Numbered from the stretch's first letter, positions 7,391-64,000 are shown. The stretch: DNA of 64,000 nucleotides from Candidatus Zymogenus saltonus (GCA_016929395.1 JAFGIX010000025.1:27720-91719), one strand, 5' to 3'. Program-made: numbers and translations. Notes: generated by a model from the letters alone, not told the origin.

Positions 7391-7489
7391 ATTGGGAAAT
7401 CGAGGCCTTGAGGATTTGTGGGGTAAAAAGGAGAAGGGTGTGGTTTGTGGTATATATTAAGTGATGACAAAAAAGGTGATGGGAGGAAG

Positions 7490-15822: not shown

Positions 15823-15917
15823 TTTAAGGCCTCATTTCTGTAAATATATGATGCAAAAAGATATATTGGAGGGGGAACAGAATCTTCCTCCTTACGGACA
15901 AACAAAAAGTCAACTAA

Positions 15918-17156
15918 CTACCTCCCCAACCCCTTCGCTATCGCCCGGAATACCTCGATCGTCTCGAGCTCCCTGTCGAAGCCGTCCACGTCGTAGTGGG
16001 CGTAAGCCGAGGTCTTTGCGATAACGACGTTATACTCCGGGTGGACGTACAAAAACTGGTTGTAGACACCTATCCCAAGGAAATCCCCCTCGGGGTTTTG
16101 AGGAATCCACCACTGGTAGCCGTAGCCGAGGACCCAGTCGGAAGCGGGATTGTCCCCCGGCATGAGGTGGGGGGCGTCCGGCGTGATAGAAGCCTTGACC
16201 TAATCCCTTGGCACGACCTGCTCGCAGTTCCAGCCGCCGCCGTTAAGATAGAGGCGGCCGAAGCGGGCGTAGTCGCGCAGGACGACGTTCAGCCCGCCGA
16301 AGGCGAGCTCCATCCCCTTGCCGTCGGTGAGGAAGTAGGCATCGGACTCCATCCCGATCTTTTTCCAGATCTTCTCTTCGAGATAAGACGACAGGTTTTG
16401 CCCCGTGGCCTCCCTCAAGACCATACCTAAAACCTGGGTGTCCATGCTGACGTAGTGGTTGTACGTTCCCGGCTCCCGCTCATTGATGAGGGACGCCACG
16501 AACTTGTCCAGCGACAGGTTCAGCGCGATTACCCTCCCCATCCTGTTGATGTCCGAGAAGAAGTCGAAGTAGTCCTCGTTGAAGCGGATGCCGGACGACA
16601 TCTGGAGGACGTCCTTTATCGAGACGCCGTCATAGCCGGTGCCTTTAAGCATCGGGACATAGTCGGAGACGGGATCGGCGATGTCCTTGATGTACCCCTC
16701 GTCGACGGCAATCCCCACCAGGGCCGAGACGAACGACTTCGCCACCGACCAGGAGATCGCCTTCGACTCCTCACTGTTTCCGAGGTAGTACTCCTCGAAG
16801 ACGATTTTGTCGTCCAAGATGACTACAAGTCCAGTGGTCCAGGTGTCTTCAAGAAACTTATTGATATTTTTGGTCTCCCCGTTGTAGACGTACGTCTCGG
16901 GAAGCTTCATCTCGGCCCTTCCGAACTCGTACGTGGTGTCGCCCCTGTGGACAACCCTGTAGTCGATGAAGCCTCCCATACTTCTGAAGTTCTCCACGAT
17001 GACGTCCTCGTCGAAGAGGGTGATGACCTTATAGAGCCTTATCAGCTCCTTGTGATAGATTGCCCCGAGGGCGACGAGGACAACAAGGAGGATGACAACG
17101 GCCTTGAAAAGCTTTGACAGGAATACGCCTTTTTTTCCTGTTTTCTTTTTGCTCAT
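15918..17156 (-). pseudogene. Beta-lactamase-family serine hydrolase interrupted by an in-frame TAG (codon at 16200-16202)
   Basis: The N-terminal ORF (16200..17156) and the C-terminal ORF (15918..16163) are in the same frame. The sequence reads ...WNCEQVVPRD-TAG-VKASITPDAPHLMPGDNPASDWVLGYGYQWW. Family homologs have Trp at the stop position (DWV). Confidence 0.6.
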
Positions 17157-23918: not shown

Positions 23919-24022
23919 AGGCCCGTTAGGCGGGAGGAGTACTAAAGGCTCATGCCCTCACCATCTACTACTCAGGCCCGTTCGGCGGCGGGGAGGACCG
24001 CAGGCTTAGGCCCTCACCACCT
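23919..24022. repeat. Tandem ~48-bp direct repeat (2 copies) overlapping the last codons of rpmB
   Basis: GGCCCGTTAGGCGGGAGGAGTACTAAAGGCTCATGCCCTCACCATC versus GGCCCGTTCGGCGGCGGGGAGGACCGCAGGCTTAGGCCCTCACCACC. Confidence 0.5.
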
Positions 24023-24194
24023 TTTCCGAGCGGAGACAGCGCGTACAGACCTTCGCCTTTATCACCTTGTTTCCGATCTTGATTCGCATGGTATGGATAT
24101 TGGGGTACCATCTCCGTTTTGTCTTGTTGTGGGCGTGGCTTACGTTATTTCCAACGACGGGCCCTTTCCCGCAGATATCGCAAACTCGACTCAT
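24006..24194 (-). CDS. rpmB: 50S ribosomal protein L28
   Basis: [32 protein letters not shown]... is the L28 signature. Length 62 aa. Confidence 0.9.
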
Positions 24195-24280
24195 CGTTTG
24201 TCTCTCCTGATAGTTGGACCGATAATATATTTACAGAATTGATTATTTTACCAAATTCTATGAGAAAATCAAGATAAAAT

Positions 24281-25687: not shown

Positions 25688-26239
25688 CTATTTGTCCTCT
25701 TTATCTTCATCCTTTTCCTTCTTTTTTTTGTCCTCTTCCTTCTTTTGTGTACTAAGGAATTTCCCGAAGATATTCTTATAAATTTTCTTGTCCGATTTCA
25801 ATTCAAGTCTTATTGCTTCTTCATAACCGATGATTGTGTAATATATCGCCCTGTCGAAAAACAGGACAACGCGGTTGTTCAGCTCCAGAGACTGGTAAAG
25901 CTCGAAGGCCGTTGACAACTGACCGTCGGAGAGGATATGGATCCAGAGGTGTCTTTTGAGAAGAACAATGGCGCTGACTACCTCGTGAAGGGCAAAGCCC
26001 TCCTTAAACCTTTCCAGACCCAGTTTTGTGTAATAGTTTCTTATCTCCTCCTTGCTCGTTTCCCTCGATATCCAGTGGCTGAGCTGGCTGTATACAAGGT
26101 GAGCCCGCTTGTAAAGCTTCTCTTCATTAAATTCGTGATATGTCGGGGTTGATGGATTAGCCCTTACGTTGGTTAGCCAATGTTTGGTAAGTATATCGGC
26201 ATCATTTTCTATTAATGTAACAAGTTTTTCAGATATCAT
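25688..26239 (-). CDS. Hypothetical protein with a poly-Lys/Glu/Asp C-terminal tail
   Basis: 183-aa ORF with a C-terminal KKEEDKKKKEKDEDKEDK tail. Confidence 0.4.
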   Translation of the reverse strand: MISEKLVTLIENDADILTKHWLTNVRANPSTPTYHEFNEEKLYKRAHLVYSQLSHWISRETSKEEIRNYYTKLGLERFKEGFALHEVVSAIVLLKRHLWIHILSDGQLSTAFELYQSLELNNRVVLFFDRAIYYTIIGYEEAIRLELKSDKKIYKNIFGKFLSTQKKEEDKKKKEKDEDKEDK

Positions 26240-48087: not shown

Positions 48088-48960
48088 ATGAGATATGAAG
48101 GTATTGTAATCCGCCCGCCAAGCGAGGCGGGAAGTCTGATCCTCCAGGTTACATTGGGCTGCTCTCACAACAAGTGCACTTTTTGTCCGACATACAAAAA
48201 AAAGAAATTCAAGATCAGGCCACTTGAATCCATCAGGGCCGACCTGAAAGAGGTCATGGGGTGCGGGAGGATAAGGAGGATATTTTTGGCCGACGGCGAC
48301 GCGCTCATAATCCCCCAGAAGACTTTAGGTCCGATTTTCGACAGCATAAATGAGTTTATATACGGGATCGACAGGATCGGGATATACGGAAACGTCAAAA
48401 GCATATTGAGAAAGACCCCTGAAGAATTGAAGGCCCTAAAGGAGAAAGGGCTGGGGATAATCTACATGGGTCTTGAAAGCGGTGACGGCGAAATTTTAAA
48501 AAAGGTGAAGAAGGGGACGGGGCCGGAGGATGCCGTTGAAGCGGCGAGAAGGGTCAGGGAGGCCGGAATCCTCCTGTCGGTGACCGTCCTTATGGGATTG
48601 GGGGGGAAGAACGGCTCCAAGCGTCACGCCCTCGAGACGGGGAAGATCCTCTCGGAAATGAACCCCGATTTTGTAGGCGCATTGACCCTGATGATCGTTC
48701 CCGGCACCCCACTGTATGAAGATTTGCAGAAAGGCACATTTGTCCTTCCGGACCAGATGGGTTTTCTGGAAGAGCTCTATCTTATCCTCAAAAGCATAAA
48801 CGTAAACAGCTGTCTCTTTACATCAAACCACGCATCGAACTACCTTCCGTTAAGGGTAAATCTTCCCGATCAAAAAGATGAAGCAATATCTTTGATTCGC
48901 AATATCCTCGACGAAGAGAGGATAGATCTTCTTCGCCCCGAATATACAAGGGGTCTTTAG
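48088..48960 (+). CDS. Radical SAM enzyme with a non-canonical CX4CX2C cluster motif
   Basis: IRPPSEAGSLILQVTLGCSHNKCTFCPTYKKKKF, then a Gly-rich SAM-binding-like segment (IFLADGDAL) and a TIM-barrel-like remainder. Length 290 aa, with no SPASM or B12 domains. Confidence 0.7.
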   Translation: MRYEGIVIRPPSEAGSLILQVTLGCSHNKCTFCPTYKKKKFKIRPLESIRADLKEVMGCGRIRRIFLADGDALIIPQKTLGPIFDSINEFIYGIDRIGIYGNVKSILRKTPEELKALKEKGLGIIYMGLESGDGEILKKVKKGTGPEDAVEAARRVREAGILLSVTVLMGLGGKNGSKRHALETGKILSEMNPDFVGALTLMIVPGTPLYEDLQKGTFVLPDQMGFLEELYLILKSINVNSCLFTSNHASNYLPLRVNLPDQKDEAISLIRNILDEERIDLLRPEYTRGL

Positions 48961-48976
48961 GAATTCACTCCTTATC

Positions 48977-51900
48977 ATGGGATCATATTTCAGAGAAGAT
49001 TTATTTGACAGAAGGATAACACTTCTCGATAGTATTCTCGACTACACCCAGGGCATTGGAATCAGAAATAAAGATTTTTGGATGCTCAAGAAGAGCGATC
49101 TGCGCTTTTGCCTCGGGGAGACGGAGATAAATATACGAATTCCGTTTATATTCGGGGGTGAGAGTGAAGAGATAATTGAAGAGGCCCTGGAGGAGCTTCT
49201 CTCCCTTATAAAGGGACGTATCGAGCCCCCGATTATCTACGACAGCCGCGGCGGCATGATGATATCGGTGTTGGATGAAAAGGTCAAGCTCCCCCCAAAA
49301 GGGTACAGGCTCGGAGGAGATTTCACCACCAAGATCGAATATAACTCCGCACTTGTCACTCTCATTTCGGATTCCCTCATGGATGCGGGGATTATCGTAA
49401 GCTGGCTTTCTCCAAAGCTATCAGGGAGAAAGCTTATTAACGAGCTAACGAGAATTTACAGAAAGGCGATCGAAGAGGAGATAAGGTTCGGCGGGAATGA
49501 AAAGACGGCCTTTCTCACCCACCTTGCGCTATCGAAATTCTTAACCGAAAAGAAGGAGATCATAAAAAAGGTAAGCATAAAGGGAATATCTTATGAGAAG
49601 CTCGAGCGCTCGATAAGCATCTTTTTCTACGCTTTGATCCTCAGCATTATCGAGGATATATTTAACAAATTCAGGAGGAAACAGCTCTCTTACGATCTCA
49701 AGAGGATTGAGTACCTTTTAATGGGGAGCACGACACCCTTTTTCGCCCTCGGCATAAAGAACTCCCTTTTGAACAGTGAGATCAATCCATACAACCTGTC
49801 GCTGAAGATAATATCCAAACTGGAAGGCGTGTACAGCCGGACGGCTAAGAGGGCGATAAGTCTCTTCGATCTCCTCTCCAAAATGACGGAAGCCGTAATA
49901 AGAGACAAGGCGCTTTCCGATGACATCCTGGGATTCTATTCAACCAGCAAGTTCAGGGATGACATATTGGATTATCTGGTACTGTATGACGATCAGAGAG
50001 ATGAGACGAATGCATTTCTCTCACGGCTGGCGTATGACGAAAAAACCTTCAGGAGCCTTTGGGAGGATCAGAAGACGGCATCGAGGTTGATGGTGGGGCT
50101 TTACAAGATCAACGAGAGACATTTTACAGACAAGGAACGAACCACCAAGGTAAAGCAGATGATCAATCATCTGAAGGTCTACAAGAAATGGGGTACACTC
50201 CGCATGTTCTCGACGGGGAAGGAGGGGACAAAGTTCAAGATTTCGGAGGTGCTCAAGCGCTACATCGCTTATAGGGTCGATCTCGGCTACGATACGTACA
50301 TCACCACATCGAAACAAGCCTTTGAAAACAAGAAGAATAAGCTGAAGTTCAACGAACTCGTCCACAGCTACGACGAGGGGCGGCTTTACAGAATTTCCGC
50401 AGATCATAAGCTGACCTTGATAAAAAAGGAGGGGAGAAAGGAGGGCCACCTCTTTGTGGACCTCAAGGGATTTACAAGAAGGACAAGGAAATCGGGAAGC
50501 CTTGTCATGGCGGAGTTTTTAAAGCTCGAGTTTTTTTTACCTATAATAGAGGCCGCAAAAAACTACTACCTCAAAGTGGGAAAAGACCCTTCATTGGGGC
50601 TCGATCTCAACAATCTCCTGGGCGATGCGGTGACCTTTTCGGGAAATATACTTGCGCTGTTTGAGCTGGCAAAAGAGATAAGAAAGATAGTCTCGCAATA
50701 TCAGAAAAAATTGATACAGAAATACCCGGAATTTGACGAAAGGATTCAGAGGGAAAAGTTGAAGTCGAGGTATCAGGCCGATCTCAAGAGACTCAACGAG
50801 AATTCAAAGATGATAATCGGCACTATCATCGAGCTGAACGAGATCATGGATGCAAAGAGGGGCATGAGCCCGGTGGAGATGATGAAGGCCCAGTTGAGCC
50901 ATTTCAACAAGAGCATCGAGGCCTACGTAGACGCCATAGGGGAGATCTCCACAAGGATAAAGGATACGGATCGGGTGGACATAAAAGAGAGGCTGGCCGA
51001 GAGCGAAGGGGTTCTGAGAGACAAGCTGTCCTTCATAAACAAAGGGAAGAAAGAGCTAAAGATGGAAGTGGAAAAGCAGCGCCTGGAAAAGAGATCGATG
51101 GAGTTCTACAAGGAGATATGCCAGGACGAGATAGTACAGATAAGGCGGCTTAACGCAATGCTATCGACTGTCTACAAAAAGAAGACGGAGCTGGTACAAG
51201 CCTATTACGAGAAGCTCGGAGAGATAGTGGATCTTGGTATGAACACCGGGCTATATATCTCTTACGGGGATGTTGTGGAATCGGTTGATCTGAAGGACAA
51301 CATTTGGGGAGACGTCAAGGTAAACATCGCTGATAAAATAAACGAGGCCGCAAGGGGCGCGACAAGGAGTCAGAGCATCAAGAAAAGGGTGGACAGATAT
51401 GTGGAGAGGTGCTGTTTTGAGATGGAAAATCCGAATCTCATCTACCCGTTCAACGTTATAGTCGGAACGGACTATTCCTTGATAAAGCCGATAGATGAAG
51501 AGCCGACCTTCTTTGAGGAGGAGATAGACTCCATCCTTGATTATGCGGAGAGGCTCTTTGCCGATGAGTGCGACGGAGAAAAAAAGGTCTCAGGACTCGA
51601 GATATGGGAGAAGGAAAAGGAGCAGTTTAACAAGGAGTTCATCTCTACGAGTACCGATATATACAACCTCGGGGAGGCCCTGTCCGGGGATGCGCTGAGA
51701 GAGTTTATTCGGGAGAGCAGGGGCCGCCTGTACTTTTTTGAGAAGAGGGTCTTGAGGGGGGAGCTCAATCAAGAATTCTGGAAGCTCTTTGCATTCGAGG
51801 GGACCGAGATTCATCTCATTTTTGGGGTCGAGAACAAAAAGGATCGGGATCTCGTGGAGATATTCAGATACGCCGGCAACATCGATTACACGGGAACCAC

Positions 51901-52042
51901 AAAAAGGGAGCATACGGAGGTTTATGAGATAATCCGTCCCACATCTCTTTTCTACAAGTTTATAATGGACTATCACTTCCTGGAATGGTATGAGGGATCG
52001 AAGGTGAAGGATGAAGAGAGGAAGGGAATTGTGAGAATGTAA
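48977..52042 (+). CDS. Giant (1021 aa) uncharacterised protein with a central class-III nucleotidyl-cyclase-like palm motif
   Basis: GHLFVDLKGFTRRTRKSGSLVMAEFLKLEFFLPIIEAAKNYYLKVGKDPSLGLDLNNLLGDAVTFSG matches FxDxxGFT...GDAxxxxF of adenylyl/guanylyl cyclases. The flanking N- and C-regions are helical and coiled-coil rich. It starts 16 bp after the radical SAM gene. Confidence 0.6.
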   Translation: MGSYFREDLFDRRITLLDSILDYTQGIGIRNKDFWMLKKSDLRFCLGETEINIRIPFIFGGESEEIIEEALEELLSLIKGRIEPPIIYDSRGGMMISVLDEKVKLPPKGYRLGGDFTTKIEYNSALVTLISDSLMDAGIIVSWLSPKLSGRKLINELTRIYRKAIEEEIRFGGNEKTAFLTHLALSKFLTEKKEIIKKVSIKGISYEKLERSISIFFYALILSIIEDIFNKFRRKQLSYDLKRIEYLLMGSTTPFFALGIKNSLLNSEINPYNLSLKIISKLEGVYSRTAKRAISLFDLLSKMTEAVIRDKALSDDILGFYSTSKFRDDILDYLVLYDDQRDETNAFLSRLAYDEKTFRSLWEDQKTASRLMVGLYKINERHFTDKERTTKVKQMINHLKVYKKWGTLRMFSTGKEGTKFKISEVLKRYIAYRVDLGYDTYITTSKQAFENKKNKLKFNELVHSYDEGRLYRISADHKLTLIKKEGRKEGHLFVDLKGFTRRTRKSGSLVMAEFLKLEFFLPIIEAAKNYYLKVGKDPSLGLDLNNLLGDAVTFSGNILALFELAKEIRKIVSQYQKKLIQKYPEFDERIQREKLKSRYQADLKRLNENSKMIIGTIIELNEIMDAKRGMSPVEMMKAQLSHFNKSIEAYVDAIGEISTRIKDTDRVDIKERLAESEGVLRDKLSFINKGKKELKMEVEKQRLEKRSMEFYKEICQDEIVQIRRLNAMLSTVYKKKTELVQAYYEKLGEIVDLGMNTGLYISYGDVVESVDLKDNIWGDVKVNIADKINEAARGATRSQSIKKRVDRYVERCCFEMENPNLIYPFNVIVGTDYSLIKPIDEEPTFFEEEIDSILDYAERLFADECDGEKKVSGLEIWEKEKEQFNKEFISTSTDIYNLGEALSGDALREFIRESRGRLYFFEKRVLRGELNQEFWKLFAFEGTEIHLIFGVENKKDRDLVEIFRYAGNIDYTGTTKREHTEVYEIIRPTSLFYKFIMDYHFLEWYEGSKVKDEERKGIVRM

Positions 52043-52070
52043 TGGCAAATATTTTTTAGGTAAAAAAACG

Positions 52071-52823
52071 ATGAGAAAAAGAGAGATACTTTTTGATTTT
52101 GCGATTGTTTTGCTTTCAACGGCGGTGATTCTTTCTCTTATGGTTTCCAATGTTTCGGCATTTGAGACCGCCGGTGAGCTGAAGGCAAAGGGGGATGAGG
52201 CCTTTTTCAACGGCGACTTTAATGATGCGATTGACTATTACACAGAGGCCATTGAAGAGGACAATGGTTTTGCAGATGCCTATAACGCAAGGGCCTGGGC
52301 CTACAATGTCGTAGGGAGATATTACGATTCGATAGCGGATTGTGACAGGGCCTTAAGACTTGACCCGAGTCTTGTCTACGCCTATATAAACCGTTCCTGG
52401 GCAAAAAACGGCCTGGGTAAATTCAAGGAGGCAATTTCCGACTGCGACGAGGCAATAAGTCTAAGACCTCCCCTTTTTCTTGCAGACGCCTACGTAAACA
52501 GGGCGTGGGCAAAAAACGGCATAGGCTTATTTAAAGAAGCCCTTTTAGACTGCAACAGGGCGATAGAGATAGACCCAAACATCGCCTCCGCATTTACCAA
52601 CAGGGCATGGGCAATGAACGGACTCGGAAGGTTCGGCGAGGCGATATCGGATTGCAACAGGGCGATAGGGATTAAGCCGAATTACATCCTGTCATACTCC
52701 TATTTCAACAGGGGATGGGCTTATTACGAGCTTGGGAGGCACGAAGAGGCCAGAGAAGACTACAGGAGGGCGTGTGATCTTAAGAACGAGCTCGGCTGCA
52801 AATTATACGATAAGTTGAAATAG
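52071..52823 (+). CDS. Secreted TPR-repeat protein
   Basis: Signal peptide, then about six 34-aa TPRs each containing AISDC(D/N)(E/R)AI. Confidence 0.75.
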   Translation: MRKREILFDFAIVLLSTAVILSLMVSNVSAFETAGELKAKGDEAFFNGDFNDAIDYYTEAIEEDNGFADAYNARAWAYNVVGRYYDSIADCDRALRLDPSLVYAYINRSWAKNGLGKFKEAISDCDEAISLRPPLFLADAYVNRAWAKNGIGLFKEALLDCNRAIEIDPNIASAFTNRAWAMNGLGRFGEAISDCNRAIGIKPNYILSYSYFNRGWAYYELGRHEEAREDYRRACDLKNELGCKLYDKLK

Positions 52824-53120
52824 TAAGGAGAAACTGTATCCGAAGTGATTGGGAGGGGCAGTTGGGCAGGGGTGCCGGGGATTGGAAGTGTAGGAAGGCC
52901 GGGGCAAGGATGCGATGATGCGCAATTTCATACAAAGGGGATGGAAATAGAAATTATTCAGGATTTGCCCTCGTCATAACCCGGATTCTGGGGGGGGGTG
53001 ACTGTCGGACGGGATTGCTAATTTGAATAAGGGGAGGGGGGATAAAGATCGGCAGGAGTTGAAAAATATTAAGGGCAAAAAGGGGGGCCGCCTCTTGGAT
53101 TCCGAGAGAGGCTTATCAGC

Positions 53121-53340
53121 CGACGGAAGATAATAGGCGTTGGAAGGTTATGCGGCGGGAAGAGGTGATCAGGGGATGGGAATTGGGGGTGGGGGAGGGA
53201 AATTTATTGGGGGGGAATCTCTTTTTGTCATAAAAGGATTGGCTTAAATACTTAAAAAAGGCCTGTAAGTCGATAGAAGGAAATCGGTGGCGGCAGGTTA
53301 AGCGGCGGGAAGATGTGATTTAGGGAAGCGGGGGAGCAGA
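53121..53340. repeat. Two ~58-bp purine-rich direct repeats 150 bp apart
   Basis: CGACGGAAGATAATAGGCGTTGGAAGGTTATGCGGCGGGAAGAGGTGATCAGGGGA versus CGATAGAAGGAAATCGGTGGCGGCAGGTTAAGCGGCGGGAAGATGTGATTTAGGGAA. G-run-rich surroundings. Confidence 0.5.
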
Positions 53341-53346
53341 GCAAGT

Positions 53347-53676
53347 CTATTTTATCGTGATATAGATACGATTGGGGATACATACAATCGTATCTCCCTT
53401 CTTTGATATTCTGCCCATGTTGATGCACACCTTGTTTGGACACGGCGAATCCTTCATGTACACCTCACCATCTTCTATGACGACCGTGCTGACGCCAAGA
53501 ATGCCTGTCACCTCGATGACCCTGTCCTCGGAGATGGGGTAGGTGCCGAAAACCTCGTTTCCCTCCTCGATGACCACCGTCCGTCCAGCATTTGCAGATA
53601 TGGATTTGAAAAAGACAAAGGCCGTTGCTATCAGGACGACGCATATAACGATGAAAATTATGTCGCTTCTCTTCAT
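53347..53676 (-). CDS. NusG-domain-II (DUF1312) containing membrane-anchored protein
   Basis: N-terminal TM helix and CPNKVCINMGRISKKGDTIVCIPNRIYI, matching the CPDQVC...G.TIVCLP pattern of the NusG_II family. Confidence 0.55.
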   Translation of the reverse strand: MKRSDIIFIVICVVLIATAFVFFKSISANAGRTVVIEEGNEVFGTYPISEDRVIEVTGILGVSTVVIEDGEVYMKDSPCPNKVCINMGRISKKGDTIVCIPNRIYITIK

Positions 53677-54142
53677 ATCACTCCAAGATTGATGGGGCTG
53701 ATCCTATTTAGATGTTATGGATTAAAACAGCTTTTGAAATATAGGGGAACGGCCGTAAGGCCCGTTCCCCTATATTTTTTTTAGGCAATTCAGGTGCAGG
53801 AAAAACAGTTAATAAATTTAGCTCAAAAGCTATGTCTCTAAAACTGGTAGTGGAAATGCCGCTTGTTATTTAATCATCTCCCAATCACACAAACGGCATA
53901 ACGTCTAAAGGATTTTGGGCTCAATTCCCGACCTTCCCCCACCAGCCCCATTTATTTCACCAGCCCACTGTCGTCAATCAAGACTAACTTGCCCGACCTA
54001 CGCCCACTAGACATCTGCCGGTCAATATCGGTTCAGCCAACCCCCCTTATACCAGCCAAAGGCCCGTTGAACTATCCCGAGACCGTTGACTCATCGCCGT
54101 TTTCCCCCTGCACCTTTCCTTCCTGTTTTCTCGGTCCGCCCC

Positions 54143-54562
54143 TTAGTCTCTCTGGGTGTGACAATCGAGGCACTCCGTAGGAGGAGTCTTGCCCGCGGCC
54201 AGCTCTTTATTGTGGCAGACCACACAGGTTTGATGCATGGAGTCTTTATAGGTTAATTCGCCGCTGTCTGCGTTGTGGCAAGACTTACATTGTGCGGGCG
54301 TACCGGCGACGAACTCCTCGTCTTCGGTGTGGTGGCACGTGATGCACGATATATCCAGGTTGCTCTGGTGATACTGGTGTTTAAAATCAATGGGGAGGTA
54401 TCTGCTCGTTGCCTTTGTCGTGTCGTCGATTTTTTCTATCACTTCTCCGTAGTATGCGGTGAGGGCGTCGACAGCCGAAAACGCCAAAACGAAGACCGTA
54501 AATAGAGAAATTGCGGCAAAGATACTTAAAATAGTAAATCCTTTTCTATTCTTCTTTTTCAT
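54143..54562 (-). CDS. Tetraheme cytochrome c (c3-like) with an N-terminal signal/anchor
   Basis: Four CxxCH motifs (CITCH, CKSCH, CVVCH, CLDCH) within 70 aa. Confidence 0.75.
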   Translation of the reverse strand: MKKKNRKGFTILSIFAAISLFTVFVLAFSAVDALTAYYGEVIEKIDDTTKATSRYLPIDFKHQYHQSNLDISCITCHHTEDEEFVAGTPAQCKSCHNADSGELTYKDSMHQTCVVCHNKELAAGKTPPTECLDCHTQRD

Positions 54563-54571
54563 TTTTCACCT

Positions 54572-56209
54572 CTATTTATATTCAAGTCCCTCGATATCCA
54601 TGATCAAACGATTCGCCATCCATCCGTTAATCTGAGCGGAGCCGAAGCCGTGAAATCCGCTCGTCCAGTTGCTGGCGATGAATACGTTGTCGATCGGAGT
54701 CCTGATCGGTATCTTCTGCCACTGCTCTTTATCCATGTAGAAGCCGTATATGATACCTTCATGGTTCAGAGTGTACTCGTTTATCGTTACCGGAGTTATG
54801 ACCTCCATCTCCTCGATGTATCTCTTCTCCTTGATCTCGGGGATAGCGTTGGCCGCAAGGTTTATCAGCTCCCAGGCCTTTTCCTCTTTCATCTTCTGGT
54901 ATTCTTTTTTGTCCTTGGCCCAGATATTGTAATCGCTGAAGGCGTGGAGAACTAAAACCGATTTACCCTTTGGCGCGTATACCGGGTCGCCGTAGTTGGA
55001 GTAGATGGTTATCGACACCGCACCTTCCTTGAAGTTACCCTTCATCATGTTGTCATAGGCGGCGGCGCTGTCTAAAGACGTGTTATAGAATATCTCCGTG
55101 TCTTTATGGCCGAACTTTTTAAGGTCGATATTCAAGCCGAGATAGACGCCGAAGAGGGAGTTTGCTACCTTCATATTTTTAACTTTATCCACGTATTTCT
55201 TCGGCAGGTTTTCCTGGCCGATGAGCTTGTAGATAAGCTGATACGGGTCGGTGTTGGCGACTATGTAGCGTGCGGTGTAGACATCTCCATACTCGGTCTT
55301 GACGCCCCTGGCTAAGCCGTCTTCAATGATTATCTCGGTGACGAGGGTGCCGGTCTTCACGGTGCCTCCCAGCTCCTCGATCCTCTCGGCGTAGGCGTTG
55401 GACAGGTTCTGGCTGGTTCCCATTACATGTACGGGACCGTCTTTAAGATATGTATTGTTTGCCATCAATAACAGGACCGCTGTTTCATCCGGAACGGGAG
55501 CGCCGTAGTATACCCAGAACTGGGAGACAACGGCCTTCAGATCCTCGTTCGTGAAACACTCGTCCAAAATATCCTGCATTGTTTTGCCCTGCCACTTAAA
55601 GAAGGTCTTCTGCTTTAAGGGCACCTGCATCTTTGTGGTAAAGGCCTTGAAGCCGCTGTAGCGAAACAGATTGGATAGAGACATATACTCTTTCGAGAAT
55701 TCAACACAGAGCTTGTGAAACTTGTCGATCCCCTCCGATTCCTCCGGCCACTTCTCCTTCAGGGCGTTGTCCTATCCCTCCCAGGTGGAAGGGAGCGTAA
55801 CGTCCACGCCGCCGGGGTAGATCGATCGATAGAGCTCGGGCAACTGGTAGGTTTCGACCTTGTCGTAGACACCGCAGAGGGTCATGAGTCTTCTCAGGGC
55901 GCCGTCCTCGGTTCTGGGACCTCCCCCGGCCATCTCATGGAGTGATGTCTCGAAGACAAAGTCACCGCGAGTGAAGTTGGTGGCGCACCCCCCTACCTTG
56001 TGGTGCTGCTCTAAAAGTAAGACCTTGAGCCCGTTCGAGGCAAGATGGGCGCCCGCAGAGAGACCGCCCATTCCACCGCCGATTATAATTACGTCGTAAT
56101 CGGCCTCGAAATCGGGAGCCTTTGTCTTTCCACAGCCCGTTATCAAGGATAGAGACGCCGAGACGGCAATTGTTAGAATAATAAACAGCCATCGATTCTT
56201 TTTAATCAT
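54572..56209 (-). pseudogene. CrtI-like FAD-dependent oxidoreductase (lipoprotein-type signal) interrupted by an in-frame TAG (55770-55772) at a Trp conserved in its tandem paralog
   Basis: ORFs 55772..56209 and 54572..55684 are in the same frame. The sequence reads ...VTLPSTWEG-TAG-DNALKEKWPEESEGIDKFHKL..., aligning with TWEEWDNTLKERWPEE of the downstream paralog. It has a DYDVIIIGGGMGGLSAG FAD motif. Confidence 0.65.
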
Positions 56210-56234
56210 TTTAAACCCCTTTTATATTTTGCTA

Positions 56235-57845
56235 TTATTCAATTCCTTCCATATCCAGTATAAGTCTCGATCCCATGTAACCGTTTATCTGGGCGGGGCC
56301 AACACCGTGCCAGGCCTTAGTCCAGCTTCCAGCTATGAAAAGGTTATCTATGGGTGTATTGTTCGGTATCTTCTCCCACTGCTCGGTATCCAGGTAAAAG
56401 CCGTAGGGTATGCCGTGATAGTTCTTGGTGAACTCCTCGATCGTTACAGGAGTCATTATCTCCATGACCTCTATGTTTTTTTTGTCCTTCAGCTCGGGGA
56501 TTACGTTGGCCGCAAGGTTTATCAGCTCCCATGCCTTCTCCTCTTTCATTTTCTGATACTCTTTCCTGTCCTTGGGCCAGATGTCGTAATCGGAGTACTC
56601 GAGGAGCGCGACCACCGACTTGCCCTTAGGGGCGTAGATTGGGTCGCCGTAGTTGGAGTAGATGGTAATTGATGCCATCCCCTCGGCGAAATTTCCCTCC
56701 ATCATATTTTTATATACGAGCGTCGTATCCGTGCTTGTGTTGTAGAATATCTCGGTGTCCGTGTAGCCGAGCTTCTTGAGGTCGATGTTCAACCCAAGGT
56801 ACGTCACAAAGAGGGAGTTTGCCGGCTTGAGGGATTTTATCCTTTCCACGTACTTCTTCGGGAAGTTCTCCTCGCCAGCGAGTTTAAAGACAAGCTGGTA
56901 CGGGTCGGTGTTGGCCAGGACGTATCTGGAGGTGTAGACATCGCCGTATTCAGTTTTGACGCCCCTGGCTAAGCCGTCCTCGATGATGATCTCGGTCACA
57001 AGGGTTCCGGTCTTGACGACGCCCTTGTTTTCTTCTATAAGCTCTTTATATGCATTGGCCAGCGCCTGAGATGTGCCCTTGATGTGCCAGACGCTGTCGC
57101 TTAAGAATGCGTCGGTTGCGGCCAGGGTCAGAAGTGCGAGTTGATCGTTAGCGGGTGCTCCATAGTAAACCCAGAGCTGGGAGACGACGGCCTTGAGCCC
57201 CTCATCGGTAAAGCACTCGTCCATAAGCTCGGTCAAGGTCTTCTTGCTCCACGTCATCAGCGACTTGTGTTTCAGGGGCACGGACATCTTCGTCTTAAAG
57301 GCCTTGAAGCCTGTGTAGCGATAGAGGTCTTTTATGGCCAGAATGTCGCTGTAGGTGGTGGATGAAAGCTCGTGGAATTTTTCTATCCCCGCGGCCTCCT
57401 CCGGCCACCTCTCTTTCAGAGTGTTGTCCCATTCCTCCCATGTTGTGGGCATTATAATGTCGACGTCCACGGTAGGATAGATGGAGCGGTAAAAATCGGG
57501 GAGCTCGTAAATATCCACCTTGTCATATACACCGCAAAGTTTCATTACCGTGCCCAAATCCCCCCTGTTCATCTCGTGAAGGGCGACCTCGAACGTGAAA
57601 TCGCCTCTGGTGAAATTGGTCGTACAGCCCCCCACCTTGTGGTGCTGTTCCAGCAGGAGCACCTTTAGGCCGGCGTTGGAAAGGTGGGCGCCAGCAGACA
57701 GTCCCGCCATTCCTCCGCCTACGATGATTACGTCGTAATCCGCCTCGAATGCAGGGGGCTTCTTCTTGGCGCATCCAAAATTGAATATAAGCGCCGTTGA
57801 CAAAGATATCGCAAAAAGAAGTAGAAAAAGATATTTCTTTCTCAT
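56235..57845 (-). CDS. CrtI/phytoene-desaturase-family FAD-dependent oxidoreductase with a lipoprotein-type signal peptide (intact paralog)
   Basis: MRKKYLFLLLFAISLSTALIFNFGC lipobox-like N-terminus, then DYDVIIVGGGMAGLSAGAHL. Length 536 aa. About 65-70% identical to the upstream interrupted copy. Confidence 0.8.
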   Translation of the reverse strand: MRKKYLFLLLFAISLSTALIFNFGCAKKKPPAFEADYDVIIVGGGMAGLSAGAHLSNAGLKVLLLEQHHKVGGCTTNFTRGDFTFEVALHEMNRGDLGTVMKLCGVYDKVDIYELPDFYRSIYPTVDVDIIMPTTWEEWDNTLKERWPEEAAGIEKFHELSSTTYSDILAIKDLYRYTGFKAFKTKMSVPLKHKSLMTWSKKTLTELMDECFTDEGLKAVVSQLWVYYGAPANDQLALLTLAATDAFLSDSVWHIKGTSQALANAYKELIEENKGVVKTGTLVTEIIIEDGLARGVKTEYGDVYTSRYVLANTDPYQLVFKLAGEENFPKKYVERIKSLKPANSLFVTYLGLNIDLKKLGYTDTEIFYNTSTDTTLVYKNMMEGNFAEGMASITIYSNYGDPIYAPKGKSVVALLEYSDYDIWPKDRKEYQKMKEEKAWELINLAANVIPELKDKKNIEVMEIMTPVTIEEFTKNYHGIPYGFYLDTEQWEKIPNNTPIDNLFIAGSWTKAWHGVGPAQINGYMGSRLILDMEGIE

Positions 57846-57893
57846 AAAATCAACTCCTTCAGATACATTGACTCGTCGTATATAAATAACATC

Positions 57894-58577
57894 TCATTTG
57901 GTTTTTTCCAGCATCTTCTTGACCCTGGACTGAAAAAGCCTCCTCAGGATATAGCTTCTCAACTCGTCTGCCATCTCCGACATCCTGGCCGTAATCCTGA
58001 TGTTTTCATCCCTTGATTTTCCCGAGACGACCCTCTTCCTCAGCTTTATCTCTTCCTCGACGATCTTTTCACCGTGATCGATGTAGAACCTCACGTCGTT
58101 GATATCCATCTTGAGCTCCTTGAAGCCCCACACTATATGTCTCGCGAAATTGAGGTCCTCGTGATTGTATGGTTTTTTGCCGCCCTTGTTGTATGGAATT
58201 AGGATGTTCATGGCCTCGGCCCTTTTCAGGAGCTCTTTATCCATCCCCGAAGCCTTGATAAACTCATCCCTGTCCATCAGCTCGGGCTCACCATGGGCCT
58301 TTGGGCTGAAGATCGCGTCCCTCAAGGATATGAGACCGTTCAGGTTCGCCCCGTTGTCGATGCTCTTGATTATACTCCTTATTACGGAGAGAGGGTAATA
58401 CTTTTTCTCCTTGAGCTCTATTACAAGGGCAATACGATCGATGCAGGATTCGTCGTAATAGGACATCGATTTATTGACCTTTTCAGGCTTGGGCAAAAGC
58501 CCCTCCTTGACGTAGTACCTGATAGTGGATTGGGGGACTCCGGTTATCTTTTCCAACTCGCTGATTTTTAAAGACAT
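57894..58577 (-). CDS. MerR-family transcriptional regulator
   Basis: LKISELEKITGVPQSTIRYYVKEGLL HTH, then a coiled-coil-like effector region. Confidence 0.75.
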   Translation of the reverse strand: MSLKISELEKITGVPQSTIRYYVKEGLLPKPEKVNKSMSYYDESCIDRIALVIELKEKKYYPLSVIRSIIKSIDNGANLNGLISLRDAIFSPKAHGEPELMDRDEFIKASGMDKELLKRAEAMNILIPYNKGGKKPYNHEDLNFARHIVWGFKELKMDINDVRFYIDHGEKIVEEEIKLRKRVVSGKSRDENIRITARMSEMADELRSYILRRLFQSRVKKMLEKTK

Positions 58578-58791
58578 ATATAATATGTTGGAATCTTTAG
58601 TTGTTTTTAAGAATTCTAATCTGAAGTTTGAAGTTAAGCTTGAGGCAATAGTATAAAAATGTCTCCATTATGTCAAGCCATTTTTGTTTTAAAAGTATAA
58701 AAGAAAAAGGTTGAAAATAGGTTGAATATATCAAGTAAAAGTGTTAACAAAGAGGGGGTGAATAATAAACGGTATTTATAAGGGGCAAAAA

Positions 58792-59556
58792 ATGTATCTC
58801 GAAAAATTCAGGCTCGACGGAAAGACGGCCATTGTAACTGGCGGGAGCAGGGGGATAGGAAGGGAGATAGCCCTGGCGTTGTCGGAAGCCGGGGCAAACG
58901 TTACGGTCGCAAGCAGGAAACTCGAAGCCTTAAAGGAGGTCGTGGCGGAGATCGAGGCAGACGGGGGAAAGGGGCACGCCGTTTCCGCCCACGCCGGGAA
59001 TCTTGAGGCCCTTGAGAGCATAGTAAACGAGACCGTAGAAAAATTCGGCTCGGTGGATATTCTTGTCAACAACGCCGCCATAAATCCGAAGTTCGGGCCC
59101 GTGGAGGATATGGACGAGGCGCTCTTCAACAAGATGATCGATGTAAACCTTAAGGCATATCTGTTTTTGAGCAAAATGGTCCTCGGCCCGATGGAGAAGG
59201 CGGGTGGAGGATCTATAATCAATATTTCGTCGATAGAGGCCTTTTCACCTTCCTTCGGCACAGGCGTTTACAACATCACAAAGGCGTCTGTGGTGATGCT
59301 GACAAAGGTTTTGGCAAAGGAGTGGGCCTCGAAAAATATCCGCGTAAACACCATAGCCCCAGGATTGATAAAGACCCATTTCTCCGAGATGCTTTGGAGC
59401 GCCGATGAGATACTAAAGATATATCTGAACCACTGCCCGATGGGAAGGATAGGCGAGGCTTACGAGGTGGCCGGGCTCGCCCTCTTTCTCGCATCGAACG
59501 CGTCGAGCTACACGACGGGCACGATATTGACCGCGGACGGCGGTTACCTGCTTTAG
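58792..59556 (+). CDS. SDR-family short-chain dehydrogenase/reductase
   Basis: TAIVTGGSRGIGREIA, NNAA and YNITKASV (YxxxK) motifs. Confidence 0.85.
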   Translation: MYLEKFRLDGKTAIVTGGSRGIGREIALALSEAGANVTVASRKLEALKEVVAEIEADGGKGHAVSAHAGNLEALESIVNETVEKFGSVDILVNNAAINPKFGPVEDMDEALFNKMIDVNLKAYLFLSKMVLGPMEKAGGGSIINISSIEAFSPSFGTGVYNITKASVVMLTKVLAKEWASKNIRVNTIAPGLIKTHFSEMLWSADEILKIYLNHCPMGRIGEAYEVAGLALFLASNASSYTTGTILTADGGYLL

Positions 59557-59562
59557 ACGATT

Positions 59563-60266
59563 TTGATTGAATTTCGGCGGAAAGACGCAGTTACTATGGA
59601 TGATTTTAAAGGCGAGCTGAGGGAGTTCTTTTCAATTGAACGCGTTGGATTCGGAGTAGCTGATATAACGGGACATCATCCCCTGTCCGGGGAGTTTCCG
59701 AGGGCATTGTCGATATGTTTGCCATATAAATATTGGCAGAGATTCAATGTCTATAATGAAGAGCGATTTCACGAGCTGTTGGAGGAAACACGTGCCATAA
59801 TGGGCGAAACCATAAACAGGCTCTCCGGACTGCTGAAGCTAAACAGCGGAGTGATAAAACATATGATTGTCCCTCAAGTGGGGCAGGATCCCGAGACACC
59901 CTTATGGCTCTTTTCCCCCACAAGCTCGCGGCGGTGCGCGCAGGTCTGGGATGGATCGGCAAAAGCTCCCTTCTGATTACGAGGGAACACGGCCCCAGAG
60001 TATACCTCGCAACCGTACTTGTCGACTGCGATATCGAGCCGGACAGGCCTGTCTTGGAAAGCGGATGCGGAGGCTGCACCGCCTGCGTTGAAGCCTGTCC
60101 ATATCTCTGTATAAAAGACCTGAATTGGCATTCCGGGACGCCGAGGGAAGAGCTCTTGGACGTTTACCTCTGCAACGCTAAAAGGGAGGAAGCTATTAAG
60201 TCGAAGGGACGAAAGGACGAATGCGGCCAGTGTCTGCTGGCCTGCCCCTACGGGAAGGGCGCTTAG
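59563..60266 (+). pseudogene. QueG-like 4Fe-4S double-cluster protein, apparently frameshifted
   Basis: ORF 59563..59976 (N-part) and ORF 59904..60266 overlap in different frames. The second ORF contains KLAAVRAGLGWIGKSSLLI and two Cys clusters (CGGCTACVEACPY, CGQCLLACPY) typical of epoxyqueuosine-reductase-type ferredoxin domains. A C5 run lies at 59915-59919. Confidence 0.45.
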
Positions 60267-60385
60267 TTATGAAGAATCTCCGATTACATTTTAGAAAAAC
60301 TTAAAACAATCGATGACTACTTATGTCTCTTATTTATTAAGCTGACTTAAGCTGTCTCTGTAGATTTAGTTAATCAGTTGTGCTT

Positions 60386-60679
<294 letters not shown>

Positions 60680-61003
60680 TTATAAGTGTCGATAATCAAT
60701 AGGCAAAAAAGTATTAAAATATGAAATTCCTAAAGAGCCTCATTTTACGCCACCCAACACTCCATTAAGCCGCCATCCCACCCGCAGATAACTTACGCCT
60801 CTTACCGTTTTTTCATACAACCTACTTTACACTGTCACCCGTTTTCACCACGCCCACTGCCATTGACAACGCCCACCGCCATGTACTAACCGATCCTTCC
60901 GCCGCCAACCCCCTGAATCCCTCATCCTCCCTCTTGCTACTTCCCAACCACACTTAACAAATGAAAGCTTTTAGTCAAAGTTCCTAAAAAACCCCTACGC
61001 TCA

Positions 61004-62182
61004 TTAATCTGCTGAATCGGGGTTGATTCTTACGGCGGTTTCATGTTCCCATGAATCGCCGTCCGATATGGGCTCGTAGTCATCGAACCAGTAAGCCTTC
61101 GGATTGCTTCTGCACATGATGAGGCGGTTGTAATCGTCCGGATTCACCGCCTGGTGATATTTGAAATATGTATATCCATCCCTCATCCCGACGACCTCGA
61201 CCTTTCCCGTATCGTGGGACATGATGTATCTCGAACGCTTCGCAAGGCCGGATACGTGGGATTTAGCCTCCTCGAAAACCTCGAACGCCCGCTCGACCTC
61301 CACTGCGTACATCTCGTTTCCAATAACGGGTCTGCACTGGAAGATATAGTACGGCGGGACGCCCACATAAGAGAGAACCCTGAAGAGCTCCGCGAGGGTT
61401 TCGGGATCGTCGTTGACGCCCTTAATCATAGGGGTTTGATTTACGGTAAGGGCGCCGGCTCTCTTCAGCATGTTCAGGGAGTCTATCGATTCCTCCGTCA
61501 ATTCCCTTGGATGGTTGAAGTGGACCATCATGTATATTTTCTTGTCTTTTGTGCTGTATTTACTGATCATCTCAAGGAGGGACGGGTCTTGGGTGATTCT
61601 CATAGGGTAAAAGGCGGGCATCTTTGACCCGATCCTGATGATCTTGACATGGTCTATCTCTCTGATCTGCCTGACGATGTTTCCGAGCTTTGGCGTGGAG
61701 AGCAGGAGAGGGTCGCCCCCGGTAAGAAGGACGTTTGTGATCTCCGGGTGATTGCGGATATATTCCAAGCCCTTGCTTACGTCCCTGACGACCTCCTCGT
61801 TGCCGCCGATGAAAAGGCGCTTCCTGAAGCAGAAGCGGCAGAATCCCCCGCAGATGTCGTTGACCAGCAGGAGCACCGTGGGGGTGTATTTGTGCTGAAG
61901 TCCAGGGGCCACCGTATATTGCTCCTCGTGGGAGGCGTCCAGCGTTCCCCAGTCCGTAAGCTCATCGAGATCGGGTATTATGATGCGGCGGATTGTATCT
62001 TTGGGATCTTTGAAGTCAATGAGGGAGAGGTAATACTCGTTGGCCCTGAACTGGAATTTATCCGTTACCTTTGTGAGATTTTCCCTCTCTGTCGGTGAAA
62101 GCCCTTCAACCCTGTTGATCTTTGTGATATATTTCGGCTTGATATTATTGCTATCTTGCTTCATATGTACCTCCTTCTCCAA
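61004..62182 (-). CDS. kamA: Lysine 2,3-aminomutase (KamA-family radical SAM, PLP-dependent)
   Basis: CGGFCRFCFRKR CX3CX2C motif and a KamA-type layout. Length 392 aa. Confidence 0.8.
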   Translation of the reverse strand: MEKEVHMKQDSNNIKPKYITKINRVEGLSPTERENLTKVTDKFQFRANEYYLSLIDFKDPKDTIRRIIIPDLDELTDWGTLDASHEEQYTVAPGLQHKYTPTVLLLVNDICGGFCRFCFRKRLFIGGNEEVVRDVSKGLEYIRNHPEITNVLLTGGDPLLLSTPKLGNIVRQIREIDHVKIIRIGSKMPAFYPMRITQDPSLLEMISKYSTKDKKIYMMVHFNHPRELTEESIDSLNMLKRAGALTVNQTPMIKGVNDDPETLAELFRVLSYVGVPPYYIFQCRPVIGNEMYAVEVERAFEVFEEAKSHVSGLAKRSRYIMSHDTGKVEVVGMRDGYTYFKYHQAVNPDDYNRLIMCRSNPKAYWFDDYEPISDGDSWEHETAVRINPDSAD

Positions 62183-62518
62183 CTTACAAACAAAATGAGA
62201 TTCGATGATGTCTGTTCCTAACCCTTAGATCAATATGCTAAAAGGGCAGATATCCTGATTGGTTTCCTCCAGTTTATTTACGAATTTTCAAGTATTAGCG
62301 TTCTGCTGGTCGATTAGAAAGCCTAACCAAATCATACGGGGATTCTTTTTGTGAAATGGTGCAGAATTTTTATGATTTATTTGTATTAACAATATAACAA
62401 GTTGAGAAAAAAATATCAAGGGAAAATGGAAAATTTTTTAAATTTTTTTACTGGACACATTTGGAGGCTATTTATTCCTTGACAAAGATTTCCTCTTTAT
62501 ATATCTTAATTATCAGGT

Positions 62519-62593
62519 GGGCGGTTAACTCAGCGGTAGAGTGCCATCCTCACACGGTGGAAGTCGCTGGTTCAAATCCAGCACCGCCTACCA
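62519..62593 (+). tRNA. tRNA-Val (anticodon CAC)
   Basis: 75-nt cloverleaf: acceptor GGGCGGT/ACCGCCT, D-arm ACTC/GAGT, anticodon stem CCATC/GGTGG with loop CTCACAC (U33, A37), T-arm GCTGG TTCAAAT CCAGC, 3' CCA encoded. Confidence 0.85.
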
Positions 62594-63247: not shown

Positions 63248-63281
63248 CTGACCCCTTAATAACCGGAAGGGGAGGGGTGTT

Positions 63282-64000
63282 ATGGCACGTGTTGTAATTA
63301 TTGGATCGGGTGTTGCCGGCCTTACGGCCGGGGCCTATATGGCAAAATCGGGGCATAAGGTAAAGATTTTCGAGCAGTTTGATAATATCGGAGGCGTCAC
63401 CGCCACGCTGCACAAGGACGGGTATTCGTGGGACCTGGGGCCGATGCTTCTTCAGGGCTTCGGGCCCGGGGAGCTGGGTGGAGACATCTTGGAGGATCTC
63501 TCGATATCCGACAAGGTCACACTCGTCAGGGACGACCGGGGCATTGTTATGCCCGATTTCGAATTATGGAAGCCTCACGAGTACGGAGGCCCCCATTGGC
63601 GCAGGGATTACCTGAAGGACGTCTTTCCCGACGAGGCCGAGGGCCTTGACCGCTATTACGAGTTCTACGACCGGATGATGGATCTCATGGCCTTAAACTA
63701 CCGCGCAAGCAGGGAATCAGGCCCTAAGAAGCTTTTTCTGAAGCTCTGGATGTTGTGGATTTTCAGGAAAGTGAAACAGATGCAGGGCTGGTCTGCTGAG
63801 GACGTGATGAACCACTTCTTCAGGGGGCCGGAGTTAAAAGGACTTTATACCGGAATTCTCGCCGATTTCGTTGTTCGTCCCAGCCAGTTTATGGGCCTTG
63901 CCGTACCGGCCGTGAATATCGAGACCGCCTTCGACAAAAGGATCCCCCTTAAGTATACTGCGGCGGGAAAGCGTCCCAGCTATCAGTACATCATAGGCGG
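63282..64000 (+). CDS. CrtI/phytoene-desaturase-family NAD(P)/FAD-dependent oxidoreductase (cytoplasmic type; 3' end outside the window)
   Basis: MARVVIIGSGVAGLTAGAYMAKSGHKVKIFEQFDNIGGVTAT dinucleotide-binding motif. The ORF is open to the window end. Confidence 0.75.
   Translation, partial: MARVVIIGSGVAGLTAGAYMAKSGHKVKIFEQFDNIGGVTATLHKDGYSWDLGPMLLQGFGPGELGGDILEDLSISDKVTLVRDDRGIVMPDFELWKPHEYGGPHWRRDYLKDVFPDEAEGLDRYYEFYDRMMDLMALNYRASRESGPKKLFLKLWMLWIFRKVKQMQGWSAEDVMNHFFRGPELKGLYTGILADFVVRPSQFMGLAVPAVNIETAFDKRIPLKYTAAGKRPSYQYIIG

Follow-up and report, generated by a model that had tools for sequence, protein, structure and literature searches.

An in-frame TAG at a tryptophan codon in an oxidoreductase gene of 'Candidatus Zymogenus saltonus' is most likely a recent nonsense mutation

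An oxidoreductase gene of 'Candidatus Zymogenus saltonus' is broken by a single in-frame TAG in a 64,000-nucleotide stretch of DNA (GCA_016929395.1 JAFGIX010000025.1:27720-91719), all of which was analysed and is here called the window. The question is whether this TAG is a mutation that ended the gene, an error in the deposited sequence, or a codon that the organism reads through. The initial annotation listed a recent pseudogene, a sequencing or assembly error and programmed read-through, and chose none of the three. The parts of the gene are as follows:

54572..56209, minus strand: interrupted FAD-dependent oxidoreductase gene of the amine-oxidase/CrtI superfamily, 545 codons plus a terminal TAG
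55772..55774, minus strand: in-frame TAG at codon 146, local context GGA TAG GAC
55775..56209, minus strand: N-terminal fragment, 145 codons, with a signal peptide and a GxGxxG FAD-binding fold
54572..55771, minus strand: C-terminal fragment, 399 codons plus stop, in which homology to the ortholog resumes directly after the TAG

The minus strand around this first stop reads ACC TGG GAG GGA TAG GAC AAC GCC CTG AAG GAG AAG TGG, which translates as T W E G * D N A L K E K W (...PSTWEG*DNALKEKWPEE...). The initial annotation had proposed that the ORFs at 55772..56209 and 54572..55684 belong to a single gene; its ORF coordinates are correct, although it placed the TAG at 55770-55772, two bases from the actual position of 55772-55774. 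If the stop is read through, Pfam Amino_oxidase (PF01593) covers residues 47-536 of 545, scoring 63.5 bits against a cut-off of 19.8, and a 544-aa ortholog aligns end to end. Since both matches span the two ORFs, these are not chance neighbours, and judged from the sequence they are one 545-codon minus-strand gene interrupted by TAG. Homology resuming straight after the stop had also been pointed out, and the C-terminal fragment of 399 codons is indeed homologous to the ortholog from that point. GenBank splits the gene into MBN1572583.1 (145 aa) and MBN1572582.1 (370 aa), the latter annotated from the ATG at 55684. The N terminus carries a lipoprotein-type signal, MIKKNRWLFIILTIAVSASLSLITGC.

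The codon that the stop replaced can be read from the neighbouring genes and from relatives. The following neighbours are relevant:

56235..57845, minus strand: intact oxidoreductase paralog, 536 aa, with TGG at the aligned position (GenBank MBN1572584.1)
54143..54562, minus strand: gene for a tetraheme class III cytochrome c, following the interrupted oxidoreductase gene after 9 nt
57894..58577, minus strand: MerR-family regulator, heading a conserved gene cluster

The paralog reads TWEEWDNTLKERWPEE where the interrupted gene has its stop. It had been described as lying downstream, but it is transcriptionally upstream, at higher plus-strand coordinates, and separated from the interrupted gene by 25 nt. 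The closest relative found is represented by loci L002-L005, from several JGI, NCBI, ENA and Logan assemblies. Its genes follow the order seen in the window: radical SAM, Fer4_16, SDR, MerR, oxidoreductase copy A, copy B, tetraheme cytochrome c3, NusG_II, a 1021-aa protein and radical SAM. Its copy B is unbroken, 544 aa long and 81% identical in amino acid sequence to the interrupted gene from end to end. TGG stands opposite the first TAG in L002, L004 and L005 and in both of the relative's copies. The suggestion of a TGG-to-TAG change is thus borne out by the ortholog and by the paralog in the window. The further description of the site as a conserved tryptophan applies among near relatives, where the codon is TGG, but not across the wider family, since the column holds F in 60, W in 41 and Y in 12 of 119 homologs. 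The top homologs of the interrupted oxidoreductase are all full length, at about 540 aa, and no naturally split form occurs among them. Searches for a second sequence of the same species returned little: protein searches found nothing nearer than 81-91% identity, a degenerate-codon DNA pattern with TNG at the stop site had no matches in JGI metagenomes, and exact-protein look-ups past the window edges led only to Logan contigs from SRR13394437.

The protein family of the interrupted gene bears on what would be lost. The gene had been called CrtI-like, which is right at the level of the superfamily (PF01593) but not at that of the CrtI family. The two copies in the window score 109.6 and 115.1 bits with TIGR02734 (CrtI phytoene desaturase), below the family cut-off of 238.1, and the top NCBIfam matches (carot_isom, desat_CrtD and crtI_fam) reach 110-130 bits against cut-offs of 238-587. 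The best long-coverage PDB match is phytoene dehydrogenase 4dgk, at E = 2e-9. The window protein shares the FAD-binding amine-oxidase fold with CrtI, CrtISO and CrtD; unlike them, it has a lipoprotein-type signal, a cytochrome c3 partner and a MerR regulator, and its scores fall far under the cut-offs of those families. The pairing of cytochrome c3 with the oxidoreductase is seen again in other genomes. In a more distant genome (L072), there are two oxidoreductase-then-cytochrome c3 units, accompanied by MerR, NusG_II and the large protein. This arrangement argues that the interrupted gene is of the conserved cytochrome-adjacent type and is not an obvious spare duplicate. The conserved pairing with the tetraheme cytochrome c3 and the MerR regulator suggests that the three form a redox module, which remains a prediction from gene neighbourhood.

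Several features of this region were recorded alongside. The minus-strand cluster at 54143-58577, as also seen in L002 and L072, comprises MerR, one or two lipoprotein-type CrtI-superfamily oxidoreductases, cytochrome c3, and the NusG_II-domain and 1021-aa proteins; homologs at about 55-70% identity are numerous in metagenomic bins annotated as Deltaproteobacteria/Desulfobacterales, with some annotated as Spirochaetes. The gene for the 1021-aa protein (48977-52042, plus strand) has no Pfam matches, its ortholog in the relative is 90% identical, and it is always adjoined by a 290-aa radical SAM gene (48088-48960). A 250-aa TPR-repeat gene at 52071-52823 (plus strand) is missing from the syntenic place in L002, where the 1021-aa gene comes straight after NusG_II. 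A third gene of the amine-oxidase/CrtI superfamily starts within the window (63252-63998, plus strand) and runs past its end. Elsewhere, a pair of B12-binding radical SAM genes (537 and 488 aa; 5777-8911, plus strand) lies beside glycosyltransferase genes.

A simple explanation for the stop would be that the organism really carries TGG and that the deposited contig holds a wrong base or a minority allele. The proteins MBN1572582.1, MBN1572583.1 and MBN1572584.1 sit on a 95,203-bp contig of the Candidatus Zymogenus saltonus MAG. This MAG, Zgenome_24 (JAFGIX000000000), is the type material of the class 'Ca. Zymogenia' and was obtained from 281 Gbp of Illumina HiSeq 2500 sequence assembled with MEGAHIT (10.1101/2021.03.22.436540). 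Logan contigs of SRR13394437 are 100% identical to the window over 4990, 1245 and 6016 bp, at 51572-56561, 15214-16458 and 56532-62547. These stretches contain, respectively, the first TAG and the two further lesions described below. Given this identity, the MAG was presumably built from run SRR13394437. Logan and MEGAHIT are different algorithms applied to the same reads, and their agreement at all three lesions makes an assembler-specific error unlikely, though a polymorphic site or a consensus artefact would still be compatible with it. Substitution errors in Illumina data, being random from read to read, do not survive into the consensus of deep sequencing, and the first site lies 788 bp inside a 24.5-kb Logan contig. 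Nor could the paralog have donated the TAG by gene conversion or by a chimeric assembly: the two copies share 71-77% DNA identity, their longest exact shared run is 28 bp, and the codon is TGG in the paralog and TAG in the interrupted gene, with no mixture of the two. The idea of an artefact draws on the origin of the MAG from a very complex sediment metagenome, on the somewhat high count of three lesions per 64 kb, and on breaks in the Logan contigs at 15214/15240 and 16434/16458, which flank the second stop and fit nearby strain variation. The third lesion is a 2-bp insertion in non-homopolymer sequence, however, which is an atypical error for either Illumina or MEGAHIT. Weighing both sides, we regard an artefact as unlikely. 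Strain variation, or else a branch in the assembly graph, may account for the Logan contig breaks on either side of the 1245-bp stretch with the second TAG.

The initial annotation had reported the same Trp-to-TAG pattern in a second gene at 16200-16202. The position is exact, and a census of the window revealed one more broken gene:

15918..17156, minus strand: second interrupted gene, a PF00144 serine hydrolase of 412 codons
16200..16202, minus strand: second in-frame TAG, at codon 319, local context GAT TAG GTC
59596..60266, plus strand: third broken gene, Fer4_16 (4Fe-4S, QueG-like), frameshifted, with pieces 59563..59976 and 59904..60266
59893..59901, plus strand: frameshift site, GAGACACCC, net +2 (an extra AC) relative to the frame of the ortholog

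Across the second stop the serine hydrolase reads ...VVPRD*VKASITP..., and Pfam Beta-lactamase (PF00144) spans residues 108-392, over the stop. All 120 homologs have W in the column of the stop. Full-length 412-aa orthologs are found at 90% identity, and the syntenic gene of a relative (L006) has TGG at the stop. In the relative, a single ORF of 220 aa encodes the Fer4_16 protein. About 55 ORFs were covered by a Pfam census, which showed all other domain matches in the window to be complete and, apart from the Fer4_16 frameshift, no further nonsense codon or truncated gene. In total, about three genes among roughly 60 are disrupted. Three other candidates were set aside: 23952..24242 and the C terminus of 25688..26239 reflect only start-site or low-complexity-tail differences, and the TAG of the SDR gene at 59554-59556, which is followed by an in-frame ORF, is a normal gene end. 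General decay, under which many genes would carry random nonsense codons, had been named as an observation that would refute the initial reading. The census lends it a frameshifted third gene but no more nonsense codons.

The extent of divergence around the stops gives an indication of their age. Relative to the orthologs, dN/dS of the oxidoreductase gene goes from 0.10 upstream of the first stop to 0.12 downstream of it, and that of the serine hydrolase gene from 0.11 to 0.06 across the second. Similar values on the two sides suggest that the regions downstream have not drifted for long. This shows that the lesions are probably young relative to the species split, and with a dS of 0.5-1.0 to the nearest relative the comparison allows only that much, dN/dS at this distance being unable to separate a recent pseudogene from a gene translated via suppression.

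Two in-frame TAGs, both aligned with tryptophan, raise the question of whether TAG has a different meaning in this organism, either as a tryptophan codon or as a pyrrolysine codon. That coincidence is the sole point in favour of a changed code. The 42 ORFs of 150 aa or longer use TAA as their terminator in 16 cases, TGA in 14 and TAG in 12 (29%), and the TAG-terminated genes, which include both interrupted ones, end at C termini shared with their orthologs. The terminal TAG of the SDR gene lies two residues past the end of its Pfam match. For the relative's orthologs that end in TAG, 7 of 9 end in TAG here too, and one further gene has gained TAG. This use of TAG as a terminator, together with the ortholog comparison, leads us to reject global recoding of TAG. 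The affected genes are not methylamine methyltransferases, their orthologs have TGG and not TAG, and TGG is among the few codons one transition away from TAG. Reassignment of the code is contradicted by these data, and a change of this kind is almost certainly not the explanation.

The comparison with known codes leads to the same place. Stop-codon reassignment, as of UGA to Trp in code 4 or of TAG to Gln in some phages (code 15), likewise presents as an in-frame stop opposite a sense codon of the homologs. Unlike in such codes, TAG terminates about 29% of long ORFs in the window, no cognate tRNA was seen, and 2 of about 60 genes are hit. The papers searched report bacterial reassignments of UGA to Trp but none of UAG to Trp. 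Pyrrolysine decoding resembles the present case in placing an in-frame TAG in a genome of the Desulfobacterota lineage, some members of which encode pyrrolysine. Its TAGs are conserved in methylamine methyltransferase genes (mtmB/mtbB/mttB), however, whereas the window genes are unrelated to these and have orthologs with TGG. Neither pylT nor pylSBCD occurs within the 64-kb window.

A weaker form of decoding would be suppression, in which the TAGs are partly read by a host or phage amber suppressor tRNA or by basal near-cognate read-through. The occurrence of two independent TAGs with no TGA or TAA lesion is consistent with suppression, as is the apparent constraint that persists downstream of the stops. 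The initial annotation had recommended a check for a suppressor tRNA(CUA). None is present in the window, where the only tRNA is tRNA-Val(CAC). When GTDB species representatives were scanned for an anticodon arm of the tRNATrp type with CUA, 59 loci were recovered, many of them genuine tRNA(CUA) genes, which serve as a working positive control. The scan, which covered one anticodon-arm type and is weak negative evidence, returned none from the window's organism. It does show that CUA-anticodon tRNA genes exist in scattered bacterial MAGs, one Desulfobacterales MAG included, which again is compatible with suppression. Against this, TAG ends genes as often here as it does in the relative, and the relative has no stop at either site. 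Stable structure is likewise absent from the 120 nt after each TAG (z = +0.95 and +0.81 against shuffled sequence), and no Rfam element was found near either stop. The base after the TAG is G at both sites. In E. coli, TAG-G is not known as a leaky context, and UAG read by near-cognate tRNAs is decoded as Gln, Tyr or Lys and not as Trp, both of which count against suppression. Programmed read-through would further be expected to conserve the stop among relatives, and the relative has TGG at both sites. Programmed read-through or recoding is thus without support, and suppression in the broader sense appears quite unlikely.

The tRNA(CUA) loci of the GTDB scan have some features of their own. 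Those of canonical tRNA length include loci from Obscuribacterales/Melainabacteria/Cyanobacteria MAGs (L013, L021, L027, L048, L065 and L070), from the Desulfobacterales MAG Bpl_7 (L051) and from an Actinomycetales MAG (L066). The Obscuribacterales tRNA(CUA) forms a conserved family, GCTGCCTTAAGCTCAGCGG..., and that of L066 looks to be derived from tRNA-Trp. Loci of 71 nt correspond to the tRNA-Pyl type of Methanomassiliicoccales. None of the tRNA(CUA) loci is related to the window's organism.

The two nonsense changes could also share a mutational origin. Both are TGG>TAG in the context TGGG>TAGG (CCCA>CCTA on the plus strand), and both are on the same strand. From the codon counts of the window (169 TGG, 236 CAG, 61 CAA and 24 CGA), a pair of nonsense mutations would both be TGG>TAG with a probability of about 0.066 if stops arose through G:C>A:T transitions only, and of about 0.006 for a mixed spectrum. 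The two stops might then be the visible part of a context-specific burst of G-to-A change (C-to-T in CCCA), produced for example by a DNA cytosine deaminase toxin or by deamination at a methylated motif; such hypermutation would be compatible with the pseudogene reading. The shared context and strand, with a joint probability of 0.006-0.07, favour it. It rests on two events only, however, and 71 of the 169 TGG codons (42%) are followed by G in any case. The third lesion is an indel. Tetranucleotide counts also gave no sign of long-term TGGG>TAGG mutation pressure, as TGGG is not depleted in the window (observed/expected 0.97) and TAGG, far from being enriched, is under-represented (0.72). A burst of hypermutation is very unlikely on these counts, and we take the shared TGG>TAG type to be a mild, post hoc coincidence that is no evidence for a mechanism. 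Independently of these tests, CTAG is strongly under-represented in the whole window, with 16 occurrences on both strands and an observed/expected ratio of 0.12.

A more speculative proposal is that an amber-suppressor tRNA is encoded by the lineage or by a phage or plasmid residing in it, or else that the stops are scars of a CCCA-specific cytosine deaminase. An amber-suppressor tRNA would explain both why the two nonsense lesions are TAG and why the sequence downstream looks intact. We consider the proposal highly improbable.

The most likely explanation, and one in which we have considerable confidence, is that a recent G-to-A nonsense mutation has truncated the oxidoreductase. With regard to the three alternatives originally left side by side, a recent pseudogene is favoured by the TGG of the ortholog, by a dN/dS of about 0.1 and by the normal use of TAG as a terminator; assembly error is disfavoured by the identical Logan sequence and the deep Illumina reads, and read-through by the lack of the stop in the relative. 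In the proposed sequence of events, a G-to-A transition from TGG to TAG would have occurred, probably recently, in the genotype that dominates the sampled 'Ca. Zymogenus saltonus' population. Translation would end at codon 146 of the 545-codon FAD oxidoreductase, and the product would be an exported 145-residue stub without the substrate-binding domain and the C-terminal FAD-binding segment. Because the stub would lack those segments, the enzyme would be lost, making the gene a recent pseudogene or null allele from which presumably no full-length oxidoreductase is made. The cytochrome c3 gene, which follows after 9 nt, may also be expressed less because of the premature stop. The serine hydrolase would be inactivated likewise at 16200-16202, and the 2-bp frameshift would break the third gene, Fer4_16. 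The window therefore carries a modest load of recent inactivating mutations rather than signs of recoding.

Two findings sit less easily with a null allele. The copy that would be lost is the conserved, cytochrome-adjacent one, whose loss is not obviously neutral, and the two nonsense changes are of the same type, TGG>TAG in TGGG. The same two points, the second TGG>TAG within 64 kb and the identity of the lost copy, are the oddities of the locus when it is set beside a bacterial nonsense (amber) pseudogene at a tryptophan codon. In other respects the likeness is close: a single TGG-to-TAG transition, two halves that are both homologous to an intact ortholog, TAG as a normal terminator and a paralog next door, with no essential difference.

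If suppression were true, it would amount to a natural amber suppressor in a free-living relative of the Desulfobacterota; no support for it was found here. The case illustrates a general trap, in that in-frame TAGs at tryptophan positions mimic recoding, yet TGG is one transition from TAG. The entries MBN1572583.1 (A0A9D8PNN3) and MBN1572582.1 (A0A9D8PNX5) are parts of one interrupted gene, best treated as a pseudogene, and the type MAG of the class 'Ca. Zymogenia' would carry about three inactivated genes in 64 kb.
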